DNA of 64,000 nucleotides from an uncultured Francisellaceae bacterium (GCA_945956915.1 CAMFJH010000002.1:33842-97841), one strand, 5' to 3'. Shown: positions 33,333 to 43,968, counted from the stretch's first letter. Numbers and translations are program-made. The notes: a model not told the origin generated them from the letters alone.

Positions 33333-33395
33333 GCTTTAGGTGCTTTTTTAACAGGCTTAGTATCACTTTCTGGGACTTTATACGCTTCTAACTTG
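33330..33395 (-). pseudogene. 3' remnant of a gene interrupted by the IS4-family element
   Basis: Minus-strand frame reads KLEAYKVPESDTKPVKKAPKA-stop. Its stop overlaps the hldE stop. Confidence 0.35.
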
Positions 33396-35001
33396 TTCAA
33401 CTTTGAAGTAAATTTAGCCAACAGGATGACTTTATTCTCCCGATGTTGCACACTAAAATGATTAAATTTTTTCAAGCAGCCTTCTTTTTGATGGCTTTTG
33501 GGTCTTTTATAATGATGGGGAATCGAGTTCTTCTCTTTTGTTTTGCCCCTTTAAGCCGACCTGGTGGTTTAACTCGGGGTTTTGGTGCATAGGCAGGTGT
33601 TCCAATTTCGGCAGTTATTTGAGTAAAAGACTTTTGAACTTGCCTTGCAGATTTTACTCTCTCATTATTTTTCATTTCGGGCAAATATTTTTCCCATGGG
33701 GTTGGTAAATTGCTTGCCAATTTGCGTGCCATATAAAGTTGTGCATAAGCCAAAGATGAGAGCTTCCAACAGGATTCTTCATGAAGTGTATCGGGTGTTT
33801 GAAATTTATCCATGAGCAATCTCGTTTTACCAAATTTAAAAAAATGCTCTATATCGTAACGTCGCTTATACGATTGCCAAATCTGCATTAGGTTTAACGA
33901 TTGTCTTTGTTTTCCAGAAACCATAAGCCACATAGCTCGTTTATAAACTGGGTTATTGTTTTCATCAGTGATGGTGATTCTAATCAGCCTAAATGGATAT
34001 TTATTTAAGTGTATGTTATTTTTCTGCCGCATTAATAGTTCATCCCAACATTGAATATGTGCTGTAAATTGTTTGGCTTTTCGAGTTTTAAAAATTGCAG
34101 ATAGGGATTCTGCCGGGGTGCACCAGGTGGCATTATCTTTTAAATTAAATTCTTTTCCATACCATAATTCATGGCCTCGTTCACGTCTACCCGTTATTTT
34201 TAGTTTTTTTGGACTGGCTTTATGATTGAAAATACGATTACTTTTCAAGCGTGCAATTAAAATTAAGTTTGTATGATTTTGCATACCATCAATAAATTTT
34301 GGACTGCTATAGGCGGTATCTCCTAAAATGACTGTTAATTCAGAACCAAAAAATGGCATCGCTGTGTTTACTTGTTGTATACCAACAGCAATCCCATTAG
34401 TATGGGTTGCCACACGTTGAGTAGATAACGGTAAGATCCAAGGCACTTGTTCTTCATTTAAATTTTGCTCTGGCAAAAAACCCATAATACTGTATTGGTG
34501 ACCAACCGTAATGGGTTTATTCCCAGGAATGACATTCGGAGCATGAATGATACCTTTATCTGCAAGTGTTTTAGAATATTTGCGAGGTGCTGCAGTACAA
34601 TCTAATACCATTAAACGAAAAGGTTGTCTTTCTGTGATAGAAGAGCAATGCTTAATTAAACAATGTTCTAAGCGCATGCTTTGTTGCGGATCTTTGGCAA
34701 AATGAGTGATAGCATCTCGGATACTTCCATATCTACGCCTGAAAATAGGATTTAAAGATAATTGTACAACTGAAGTAGCATGCGTATTACCAGATAAGAC
34801 ATCTACAAGATCCATAGTGGAATCTGCTCGAAATGAAAAACAATTAAAAATTTGGTCGCGAAATTGTTTAAATTTGTTTACAATGGCTACTTGCATAAGA
34901 GGTGTCCTTCACTTTGGTAAGAGACTGTGACATTACACCTTCTTATGCAATTAATCAAATTATTATATCAGTTGAATTGCTAAATTCACTTCAAAGTTGA
35001 A
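33396..35001 (-). mobile_element. IS4-family insertion sequence (1606 bp) with 23-bp terminal inverted repeats
   Basis: IR TTCAACTTTGAAGT(A/G)AATTTAGC at 33396-33418 and, reverse-complemented, at 34979-35001. Encodes a 474-aa DDE transposase. Confidence 0.85.
33472..34896 (-). CDS. IS4-family DDE transposase
   Basis: VLDCTA (D1), ILGDTAYSS (D2), and YKRRYDIEHFFKFGK, which is the Y-2-R-3-E-6-K (YREK) signature. Confidence 0.85.
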   Translation of the reverse strand: MQVAIVNKFKQFRDQIFNCFSFRADSTMDLVDVLSGNTHATSVVQLSLNPIFRRRYGSIRDAITHFAKDPQQSMRLEHCLIKHCSSITERQPFRLMVLDCTAAPRKYSKTLADKGIIHAPNVIPGNKPITVGHQYSIMGFLPEQNLNEEQVPWILPLSTQRVATHTNGIAVGIQQVNTAMPFFGSELTVILGDTAYSSPKFIDGMQNHTNLILIARLKSNRIFNHKASPKKLKITGRRERGHELWYGKEFNLKDNATWCTPAESLSAIFKTRKAKQFTAHIQCWDELLMRQKNNIHLNKYPFRLIRITITDENNNPVYKRAMWLMVSGKQRQSLNLMQIWQSYKRRYDIEHFFKFGKTRLLMDKFQTPDTLHEESCWKLSSLAYAQLYMARKLASNLPTPWEKYLPEMKNNERVKSARQVQKSFTQITAEIGTPAYAPKPRVKPPGRLKGAKQKRRTRFPIIIKDPKAIKKKAA

Positions 35002-35210
35002 ACGAACAGCTTTTGTATTGAAGGATGCACCTAGCTCTGCTGCTGTTTGCGGTGATTTTTTTGCTAGCTCATCCTGCAATTGTGCTAAATAATTTTTAAA
35101 ATGGTCGACTGTCTCTTCCAATTCTCCAAGCTTTTGTTCAGTCAGATATATTTTTGTAAGTTCTGGATCTGTTCCCTTATCTACGCCGATACATTCATGA
35201 TCTCTTTTGG
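35002..35210 (-). pseudogene. Internal remnant of the same disrupted gene, bounded by the IS4 element and by an IS6 end
   Basis: Minus-strand open frame KRDHECIGVDKGTDPELTKIYLTEQKLGELEETVDHFKNYLAQLQDELAKKSPQTAAELGASFNTKAVR, with no start codon before the IS6 inverted repeat. Confidence 0.35.
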
Positions 35211-35448
35211 TTGTGTTGCAAGAATCCTGTGCTTATGATACTATGCACGTATATTTATGGCGGTGGGTCAAGCAGAATGAGCAATCAAATCAGTTTTAAG
35301 TGGAGGCAGTTTCCAACGGATTTTATTTTATTAATGGTTCGTTGGTATTTATCCTACTCTTTAAGCTACCGTAATATTGAAGAGATGATCTTGGAACTGG
35401 TGATTCATGTTATTCATACAACCATTCATAGCTGGGTATTTTATTGCG
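35209..35448 (+). mobile_element. IS6-family left-end fragment (about 240 bp, degenerate)
   Basis: GGTTGTGTTGCAAGAATCC inverted repeat plus the first ~60 transposase codons (MSNQISFKWRQFPTD...). Similarity to the full copies is lost near 35448. Confidence 0.75.
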
Positions 35449-35457
35449 ACAGAACCT

Positions 35458-41868: not shown

Positions 41869-42111
41869 CAATTTTTGAATTGGTTCCATAATATTTTAAA
41901 TTTTGTAGCGAGTACCTATTCTTTCAGGATTTCTTCCTAAAATTTGGGTATATACCCTGAAATTTTCGGAGTACTGGTTAAAAATGGAGGACATTTCTAA
42001 ATTGCCGTTACAATGCCGTTACAATAATGAAAATGAACTTTTGGAAAAAAAATAAGACAAATTCTTTATAGTATGAGTAGCTACTACATAAAATAGAGAG
42101 GAGTTACAATT

Positions 42112-43815
42112 ATGCCAGAAGAAGAAATTACAAATGAAAAACTTGCAACTAAAGCAATGGCTATTAGTAAAGATATAGCAGATAGAAGCCGCAATGAAGC
42201 TCACAACTATAATGCCTCAAAGCCTTATGCAAATACTCAGCTCAATCGGGCTTTTGGCAATAAGTTAGTGGATCCTAACACTCCTTGGGGTAAAGAGTAT
42301 TTAAGGACACTCAAAGAATTGGAAAAAAAAGCATTGCAAGCAAACAATTTTGCTAGTAAGAGTGCTTTTACAGATTTGCCAAAAGCAGAGAAAGGACTTT
42401 TAGAGATTGAGCAGGCAGTGATTTCTGCAGAAAGGACTTATCTTGCTGCTAAGGCGCTTGCTGAAACTGCCACACCCTATGATGCCAATGCAACTCGTGA
42501 TACAGCGTCAACACTTGTCTCTCAAGAAAAACCGATTCTTTATAGACCGAGCTCTGTGCAGGGAAATTTTGTTGCCACTTTGTACCTTAGAGAAAAAAAG
42601 AACGCTGAGGGCAAAATCGAAAATAATATTGTAAATCTTTTGATTACGGTAGACGCAGAAGGTTATAAAACGGAATTTGATAATAAACATTATAAGTCTT
42701 TAAACGAGCTTTTTACAGCTGTGGAAAAAACACAACAAAATCTCAATACACCACCGGAACCTGCCTTAACATCGTCGCCAGTTACCGTTGAATCACCGCA
42801 GCCTTCAAGTAATCCATCTCAAGATCTGAAGATGAGAGCAGATGATCTTATCAACCGAATGCTCGTGATTGAACGACAGGATAATGCTACAAGAGCGGTG
42901 ATTAGAGATGCTATGAAAAAGGGTGAGATCACTGATGCGGAAAAAGACTATATAAAATCCAATGATCTCGCATTATCAAAAGCAGAAGTGTATGAGATAC
43001 GTAAAAAACTTCAGAAGACTGATATAGGTTCACTGACAAAAGAAGGCTTAGAAGCGGTAGAAAAAGACTTTGAAAAACTTGAACAACATTTTAAAAAAGC
43101 TAGAAAAACACTTCCCGATTCTATGAAGCCAGAGATCTTGTCGCCGGTAGCTGCCGTAGTACAGCCCATAGCTACACAAGAATCACAGCAGCCTTCAGTA
43201 ACAGAACAAAAAAAAGACCCTGAAATCCTAAAACCCGTATCAACACCCATAGCTGCACCTACAGCACAAGTTTCGTCACTGCAGCCATCACCACCATTTG
43301 TGCAGAATTCTACTTTGCAACCCATGCCTCCATCAGTGGTACAGCAGCCAGTAGTGTCGCAACCTCCAATGACTCCACAACAAAATACAGCACAAATACA
43401 GAAAGCAGATATGGTTCAAAACCCATCTCAGAAAGAAAAAAATTCACCTTCGCCCAATCTACCCACGCCGCCTTCGACACCAACCCTATCAAAATCAACA
43501 GGACAAAAAATCACGGATTTCTTTAAAGCCATATGGTCAGCATTAAAGGAAAGAGCAGGATTTTCTTCGAAGGAGCAGAAGCCGGATCTTAAAACCAATA
43601 ACGAGCAAGCAAGCACAAGTGTTAATGCCTCAAATCAAAAGCCAAAAATTTCTGAACCTTCACCTCCGCCTTTCACTGCAGGCTATAACAATAACAATCA
43701 AAAGCAACCCTCGCTTTCACAGGTAGCTAAAGTTCCAATCACCCTAACTCCAGACCCAACTCCACAAATGACTACTCCAGATTCGGATAGATCTCGTAGT
43801 CGCTCGAGACCTTAA
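42112..43815 (+). CDS. 567-aa hypothetical protein with a Pro/Ser/Gln/Thr-rich C-terminal half ending in DRSRSRSRP (effector-like)
   Basis: GAGAGGAG RBS 8 nt upstream. A strong terminator follows. No recognisable catalytic motif. Confidence 0.65.
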   Translation: MPEEEITNEKLATKAMAISKDIADRSRNEAHNYNASKPYANTQLNRAFGNKLVDPNTPWGKEYLRTLKELEKKALQANNFASKSAFTDLPKAEKGLLEIEQAVISAERTYLAAKALAETATPYDANATRDTASTLVSQEKPILYRPSSVQGNFVATLYLREKKNAEGKIENNIVNLLITVDAEGYKTEFDNKHYKSLNELFTAVEKTQQNLNTPPEPALTSSPVTVESPQPSSNPSQDLKMRADDLINRMLVIERQDNATRAVIRDAMKKGEITDAEKDYIKSNDLALSKAEVYEIRKKLQKTDIGSLTKEGLEAVEKDFEKLEQHFKKARKTLPDSMKPEILSPVAAVVQPIATQESQQPSVTEQKKDPEILKPVSTPIAAPTAQVSSLQPSPPFVQNSTLQPMPPSVVQQPVVSQPPMTPQQNTAQIQKADMVQNPSQKEKNSPSPNLPTPPSTPTLSKSTGQKITDFFKAIWSALKERAGFSSKEQKPDLKTNNEQASTSVNASNQKPKISEPSPPPFTAGYNNNNQKQPSLSQVAKVPITLTPDPTPQMTTPDSDRSRSRSRP

Positions 43816-43832
43816 TACTGTACTCTAAAAAA

Positions 43833-43881
43833 CCCCAAAAATAAGCTAATTAATTAACTTATTTTTGGGGTTGGTTTTTTT
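43833..43881 (+). terminator. Rho-independent terminator
   Basis: 13-bp perfect stem CCCCAAAAATAAG / CTTATTTTTGGGG (43833-43845 and 43858-43870), a 12-nt loop, then TTGGTTTTTTT. Confidence 0.8.
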
Positions 43882-43968
43882 ATGCTAACAATGGCTTTTT
43901 ATTACAAAGCTTGTTAACCTTTAGTAAATTACAGATAAGAGCAACTCAGAAATAAAGAGTGAGTGATT

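Follow-up and report, generated by a model that had tools for sequence, protein, structure and literature searches.

A probably IS6-accreted, largely fossil island separating hldE from waaA in an uncultured member of the Legionellaceae

The hldE–waaA interval and its contents

The window analysed here is a stretch of 64,000 nucleotides (C2:33842-97841) taken from the assembly (2.31 Mb, 70 contigs) of an uncultured bacterium of the Legionellaceae. The organism has a Dot/Icm system, and its genome (2.3 Mb) is 99.5% complete as judged from marker genes. In this window, a 10.6-kb island separates hldE from waaA, two genes of the lipopolysaccharide (LPS) inner-core cluster, and combines insertion sequences (ISs) with a toxin–antitoxin (TA)-like pair and orphan genes. 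The island is probably a product of accretion by IS6-family elements and is by now largely fossil: IS6 ends mark all the module boundaries, and each of the three IS6 copies is defective.

On the left of the island, genes for a DUF374 protein, a zf-CHCC protein, two GT9 heptosyltransferases (waaF- and waaC-like), a Wzy_C ligase-like protein and HldE run co-directionally up to 33332, and waaA, which encodes the Kdo transferase, resumes on the same strand, as claimed in an earlier note on this DNA (which does not mention the zf-CHCC gene) and as borne out by Pfam. The start given there for waaA, 43969, is the one found in other assemblies, versus 43963 here; the start of hldE is placed at 31878 (484-aa product) in contigs L010 and L011 of other assemblies. 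The features of the interval are listed below, with positions counted from the first letter of the window (IR, inverted repeat; IRL and IRR, left and right IRs; ORF, open reading frame).

31836–33332, + strand: hldE, left boundary gene, bifunctional heptose kinase/adenylyltransferase (Pfam PfkB, 142.8 bits; CTP_transf_like (cytidylyltransferase), 73.2 bits)
33329–33395, − strand: 3' piece of a small convergent gene (about 21 codons plus stop; translation KLEAYKVPESDTKPVKKAPKA, then stop), apparently cut by the IS701-like element
33396–35001, − strand: IS701/IS4-like element, 1606 bp, with 23-nt IRs and an intact transposase gene at 33472–34896 (474 aa)
35002–35208, − strand: 5'-truncated body of the small convergent gene, 69 codons (open frame KRDHECIGVDKG...NTKAVR), apparently truncated where it meets an IS6 left end (35208/35209)
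35209–35448, + strand: IS6C, a 240-bp left-end stub whose IRL is intact (GGTTGTGTTGCAAG); identity 93.6% with IS6B, 92.1% with IS6A
35458–35745 (brnA) and 35735–36034 (brnT), − strand: TA-like pair with an 11-nt overlap
36088–37989, + strand: IS6A, 842 bp without its nested element, with a pair of IRs (NCBIfam IS6, 213.8 bits), split at 36748/36749 by the IS1595 element
36749–37800, + strand: IS1595-family element, 1052 bp, nested in IS6A (Pfam Zn_ribbon_IS1595, PF12760, and DDE_Tnp_IS1595, PF12762; NCBIfam NF033547)
37990–38411, − strand: IS-X, the 422-bp outer end of a fifth IS, a multi-copy one; it retains ~100 initial codons of a transposase-like ORF and is truncated by the IRR of IS6A
38672–40975, + strand: ORF767, with an N-terminal P-loop (TRAFAC-type) GTPase domain, a long coiled-coil and a Ser/Thr-rich tail
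41048–41868, + strand: IS6B, decayed, 821 bp by alignment, with an intact IRR and two changes in the IRL (GGGTATGTTGCAAG)
42112–43815, + strand: ORF567, an orphan Pro/Ser/Gln-rich protein without a Pfam family
43831–43880, + strand: intrinsic-terminator-like hairpin, a 15-bp stem followed by GGUUUUUUU (U run)
43963–45246, + strand: waaA, right boundary gene, intact (Pfam Glycos_transf_N, 220.8 bits)

IS6 copies and the assembly of the island

The three IS6 left ends reported in the earlier note, at 35209, 36088 and 41048, are all present and all on the + strand. Elements of this family are recognised by a single DDE transposase of about 213–254 aa, a description that fits the transposase found here; they measure 700–890 bp, generate 8-bp repeats and are found in arrays (PMC7986276). 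The assignment rests on NCBIfam NF033587 (213.8 bits, cut-off 125) and Pfam DDE_Tnp_IS240 (103 bits), and IS6A falls within the size range of the family and has near-perfect short IRs (16 nt, 15 positions identical; IRL GGTTGTGTTGCAAGAA, IRR GGTTGTGTTGCAAAAA). The nearest DNA relatives are plasmid IS6 elements of Legionella and Piscirickettsia, and an apparently intact IS6 transposase of 236 aa is encoded on contig C18 of the same genome.

Besides the reduction of IS6C to a stub, the damage is as follows. The translated transposase of IS6A is broken after ...MMGFK, with loss of its last ~39 residues, and the transposase gene of IS6B carries an AAA>TAA stop codon and a 21-bp deletion, its ORFs being split into 119 and 130 aa. 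The copies are 92–95% identical (5–8% diverged), among themselves as well as to copies elsewhere in the genome, with one exception: at their right ends (37807–37989 versus 41686–41868; 183 nt), IS6A and IS6B are 99.5% identical and share an exact run of 179 nt, whereas the left 650 nt of the same two copies are 92.8% identical. Repeats such as those of the island (240–820 nt, 92–99.5% identity) are far above chance, and their mosaic identities (right versus left parts of IS6A and IS6B; brnTA versus the stubs, see below) suggest, from the alignments, gene conversion between copies.

None of the three island copies is flanked by an 8-bp target duplication, the flanks being different in all cases (for IS6A, GTCAATTA versus TATGAATC), and no matching 8-bp flanks were found among all the IS6 ends of the genome. 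This is still compatible with membership of the IS6 family because the flanking repeats of IS6 elements disappear via intramolecular or cointegrate events (PMC7986276). Indeed, IS6 ends at the module boundaries, their direct orientation and the lack of target duplications together fit accretion through IS6/IS26-type cointegrates (PMC7986276).

Direct support comes from contig C58 (6161 bp), on which the module formed by the IS6 stub and brnTA recurs, again abutting IS6 ends. The match extends over 35206–36100 at 96% identity overall (99.8% for brnTA, ~90% for the adjoining stub), and the module is followed on C58 by a 20-bp collapsed IRL/IRR fusion (GGTTGTGTTGCAACACAACC), that is, by an IS6 element reduced to its two ends. 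Since the same module is thus duplicated next to IS6 ends, IS6 accretion receives direct support, and the boundaries, the missing duplications and the C58 module make the earlier proposal of assembly by successive IS6-mediated events largely right.

The other ISs of the island are of three kinds. The nested element, described earlier as a member of the IS1595 family, is one indeed: it has the N-terminal zinc ribbon, the ISXO2-like DDE domain, terminal IRs (TTGGCTCT.. and ..AGAGCCAA) and a perfect 8-bp target duplication (AAAAATTT, at 36741–36748 and 37801–37808). Its transposase gene is frameshifted (two frames) at an A8 run (37291–37298); the element is single-copy in the assembly and has an identical structure in sample ERZ12289969. 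The IS701-like element possesses the only intact transposase gene of the island. Its product matches Pfam DDE_5 (62 bits), NCBIfam NF041680 (387 bits, cut-off 440) and then IS701 models, likewise below cut-off, so that by these profiles the element is assignable at the superfamily level only, as IS701/IS4-like: the element reported at this place is real, but the canonical IS4 label does not hold. A second copy, decayed and 88% identical, lies on C26, and no target duplication was found either at 33395/35002 or at the C26 copy. As for IS-X, its terminal 53–56 nt (38357–38412) recur, at 98% identity, where contigs C6, C17 and C45 end, and neither Pfam nor NCBIfam has a match for its 108-aa ORF. 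The feature at 37990–38411, one of the two listed previously as gene remnants, is therefore a truncated end of a multi-copy IS and not the remnant of a gene.

The small convergent gene, which overlaps the hldE stop codon, appears from its two pieces to have been interrupted by the IS701-like element and shortened by IS6C, although joining its body to the piece that ends at 33395 requires a 1- or 4-nt shift. It has no homologue in the relatives' loci and no Pfam match.

These elements belong to a genome rich in repeats: of the 140 contig ends, 112 have 40 nt or more in common with another one, in families of up to nine ends, and breaks in the assembly fall almost exclusively at repeats. Such repetition indicates a genome saturated with multi-copy ISs that the assembler could not cross, and points to several high-copy IS families collapsed from the assembly, i.e. 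to an IS expansion in this Legionellaceae metagenome-assembled genome (MAG). That the present island was assembled at all is due to the divergence of its IS copies.

On this basis, the following course of events can be proposed. The short hldE–waaA spacer, to judge from the structure, would have served as a dump site for mobile DNA. Modules (the small convergent gene; the brnTA pair; the IS-X fragment with ORF767; ORF567) would have been joined there by IS6-family cointegrate or targeted events, leaving direct IS6 copies at the boundaries and no 8-bp duplications. Later, simple (cut-and-paste or copy-in) hits would have placed the IS1595 element in IS6A and the IS701-like element in the small convergent gene. 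Finally, the IS6 copies would have decayed through truncation, interruption, a stop codon, the 21-bp deletion and damage to an IRL, to reach their present 5–8% divergence.

Does the island represent a derived state? The nearest HldE relatives are those of Legionella-labelled MAGs (Legionellaceae; 60–62% identity), and HldE scans of genome and metagenome contigs revealed nothing above 62% identity; a search of genomes gave none of the same genus. In four of the five closest relatives (L013, L014, L015 and L096), waaA directly follows hldE in the same direction, with a spacer of 240–470 bp. This adjacency, as compared across these loci, is likely the ancestral state, and it makes the island derived: comparing the junction in relatives, a check proposed in the earlier note, identifies a later insertion. 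In the closest relatives, the spacer (L013:11429-11666, L014:11429-11838, L015:11429-11772) contains only a conserved ORF of ~58 aa (MDIHYKQFRAKIYFSAETDSFYGEV...) with a weak UPF0150/HicB-like match (E 0.002, below cut-off), a possible orphan antitoxin-like gene in the same position. Elsewhere the interval holds other genes, which makes it recurrently variable: aldo-keto reductase, major facilitator superfamily, carbonic anhydrase and DAO genes in G009 and G016 (the latter with a YhgA-like transposase as well) and an 818-aa orphan in G013. In G005, hldE and waaA are adjacent yet convergent.

An alternative would be that the non-IS cargo, comprising the small convergent gene, ORF767 and ORF567, is old resident DNA to which only the IS copies were added. 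The overlap of the small convergent gene with the hldE stop codon is of a sort common between native neighbours, the interval is occupied by other genes in some relatives, and the GC contents of ORF767 and ORF567 (0.35 and 0.41) resemble those of the flanks. More generally, the composition profile recommended in the earlier note gave no foreign signature in the island, whose parts (0.34–0.41) are no different from the flanks (0.38–0.39). Against this alternative stand the adjacency of the two boundary genes in four of the five closest relatives, the bounding of the ORF767 block by IS ends on both sides and the lack of any relative of ORF567. Moreover, cargo of the ORF767/ORF567 type, whose presence without ISs in relatives would have spoken for an ancestral cargo, is not encoded in the relatives' loci. 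We therefore consider resident cargo quite improbable and retain IS6 accretion.

Present mobility and integrity of the assembly

The earlier note further suggested that the island could still be excised. The possibility to be considered is that an IS6 pseudo-compound transposon or translocatable unit, made up of the whole island or of its IS6A–ORF767–IS6B part, is still mobile, with excision and reinsertion going on at present. At first sight, the arrangement is suggestive: the direct copies IS6A and IS6B (both +) lie on either side of the IS-X fragment and ORF767, IS6A has good IRs, the two copies share the 179-nt exact run, the brnTA module is present twice at 99.8% identity, and an intact IS6 transposase gene is available on C18. 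A functional unit, however, takes an intact transposase gene and intact ends in at least one of the two bracketing ISs; here the transposase genes of both are broken, and the IRL of IS6B is altered at two positions. IS26-type excision requires an intact transposase and is abolished when both IS copies are frameshifted, and the IS26 transposase seems to act in cis (PMC7986276), which makes transposase-driven excision of the island unlikely. In addition, the copies have diverged by 5–8%, and the same structure is found in contigs of two other metagenome assemblies (ERZ12289969 and ERZ17996545), which are 99.95–100% identical to the window and among which no deletion form is on record. Continued mobility is thus quite unlikely, and the earlier suggestion is not supported. 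A rare RecA-type homologous deletion between the direct copies IS6A and IS6B, via their exact repeat, is nonetheless plausible and would remove the ORF767 block.

Several points weigh against a purely fossil island built by IS6 accretion. Over 183 nt at their right ends, IS6A and IS6B are nearly identical, which denotes a fairly recent recombination or conversion. Mobilisation in trans by the C18 transposase is formally possible, given the good IRs of IS6A. The agreement between assemblies is at the level of contigs, which minority deletion forms would escape, and one segment, 34964–36649 (right end of the IS701-like element, remnant, IS6C stub, brnTA and left end of IS6A), is backed by a single assembly. 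Lastly, the nearest relatives share only ~60% HldE identity, a distance at which the order and age of the events are not datable.

It is highly improbable that part of the arrangement is an assembly artefact, with false joins made through repeated IS sequence: this MAG is fragmented at repeats, brnTA is a two-copy repeat and the 34964–36649 segment lies outside the independent contigs found, but the remaining junctions (hldE/IS701-like; IS6A/IS1595/IS6A/IS-X; IS-X/ORF767/IS6B/ORF567/waaA) are reproduced at 99.95–100% identity in separate assemblies, the island IS6 copies (92–95%) are distinct enough for unambiguous assembly, and the stub beside brnTA differs by ~10% from its C58 counterpart. 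Exact-protein look-ups for the long-start HldE, for BrnT and for two IS6A start variants gave no match, and that for BrnA returned the C58-type copy only.

Cargo, flanking genes and comparison with known systems

Both ORFs described in the earlier note as effector-like, at 38672–40975 and 42112–43815, are present. ORF767 matches Pfam MMR_HSR1 just above threshold (22.2 bits) and contains an (EAK)3(EAN)11 repeat (encoded at 40637–40771). Its residues ~10–220 have 320 remote homologues (best, 68 bits), several of which carry the GTPase domain fused to U-box, OTU or Sel1 domains, an association that is suggestive only. The genome contains one paralogue, 29% identical, on C39. A single-sequence AlphaFold model of residues 1–350 was unusable (pLDDT 38.6). 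ORF567 found only itself among 5.8 billion proteins. For neither protein did sequence searches of the PDB give a meaningful relative, and neither shows homology to any named effector or solved structure. On the other hand, the genome encodes Dot/Icm, as indicated by three DotI/IcmL (PF11393) paralogues above cut-off on C1, which makes "effector-like" a reasonable label and no more; ORF767 is, on its domain make-up, an effector candidate only. A broader idea is that IS6 elements of Legionellaceae shuffle Dot/Icm effector-type genes and TA modules within and between genomes, IS6A–ORF767–IS6B being a captured effector cassette; we regard it as unlikely. Should both orphan ORFs prove to encode translocated proteins, the island would illustrate, on a small scale, the acquisition of effectors in association with IS6.

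Note that a ~206-bp non-coding repeat found at C39:1-270 and C49:1173-1378 starts with an exact IS6-type terminal repeat (GGTTGTGTTGCAA); its C39 copy lies ~700 bp upstream of the sole paralogue of the ORF767 GTPase domain.

A BrnT/BrnA-like pair, also mentioned in the earlier note, is present, with weak profile matches: Pfam BrnT_toxin 24 bits (E 5e-5; cut-off 34.5), CopG_antitoxin 28.4 bits (cut-off 28) and NCBIfam BrnA 18.4 bits versus a cut-off of 60. Upstream of brnTA, at 36070–36042, lies a promoter-like site (TTGACA-17-TAATAT, 10/12 matches). On C58, the module is found beside a gene for a SWIM-like protein of 266 aa and a gene for a 919/922-aa SNF2-family helicase (DUF3670).

The hairpin downstream of ORF567 ends 83 nt before waaA and has a predicted RNA folding energy of −22.6 kcal/mol (z = −4.6). 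Read-through from the island into waaA is unlikely in view of this strong terminator-like structure, which makes a promoter of its own likely for waaA; to judge from the layout, waaA is presumably read from such a putative promoter. No consensus promoter was found on the + strand in the 83 nt before waaA, a result that is not decisive. Co-transcription of waaA with hldE was probably never required, since the relatives already have a spacer of 240–410 bp.

Three further observations concern the LPS genes. A second, divergent hldE-like gene, whose product is 38% identical to the window HldE, lies at C3:101775-103187. Within 30673–33332, between the ligase-like gene and hldE, the window is devoid of the family-2 glycosyltransferase gene (~275–315 aa) that relatives have there, and a tblastn search of the whole genome found no homologue; the LPS core is therefore probably simplified. 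A 403-aa orphan ORF without a Pfam or NCBIfam family occupies 45490–46701, between waaA and a convergent OEP/TolC-like gene. As the OEP gene comes directly after waaA in L013–L015 and G009, this ORF represents a second insertion in the cluster, one without an IS.

The island is a decayed member of a well-known kind; it is ordinary and matters little beyond annotation. What it adds is a view of the conserved hldE–waaA junction of the LPS inner-core cluster as a place where foreign DNA has lodged repeatedly in Legionellaceae, and of an uncultured member of that family documented in IS expansion and decay. For genome scans, it shows that direct IS6 copies alone are no proof of a mobile unit and that the state of each copy must be read.

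Three known systems can be compared with these findings. The brnTA pair resembles the BrnT/BrnA type II system of Brucella abortus in consisting of two small genes that overlap, the toxin-like one preceding the CopG/ribbon–helix–helix-type antitoxin-like one; it differs in that its BrnT is under the Pfam gathering threshold and its BrnA under the NCBIfam cut-off. The many high-copy IS families, the nesting, the truncation and the pseudogenised transposases recall the IS expansion and decay seen in host-restricted or recently host-adapted bacteria; by contrast, the genome still measures 2.3 Mb and the LPS core genes that flank the island are intact. The island as a whole parallels the IS26/IS6 arrays and pseudo-compound transposons of the Tn4352 type (PMC7986276), with which it shares small elements (~0.8 kb) that encode one DDE transposase and are bounded by short GG-initiated terminal repeats, direct copies that delimit cargo, missing 8-bp flanking repeats and the recurrence of brnTA beside IS6 ends. 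It differs from them in being chromosomal, in carrying a TA pair and orphan effector-like genes instead of resistance genes, and in having IS6 copies that are all defective and 5–8% diverged, as befits a relic rather than a working transposon.

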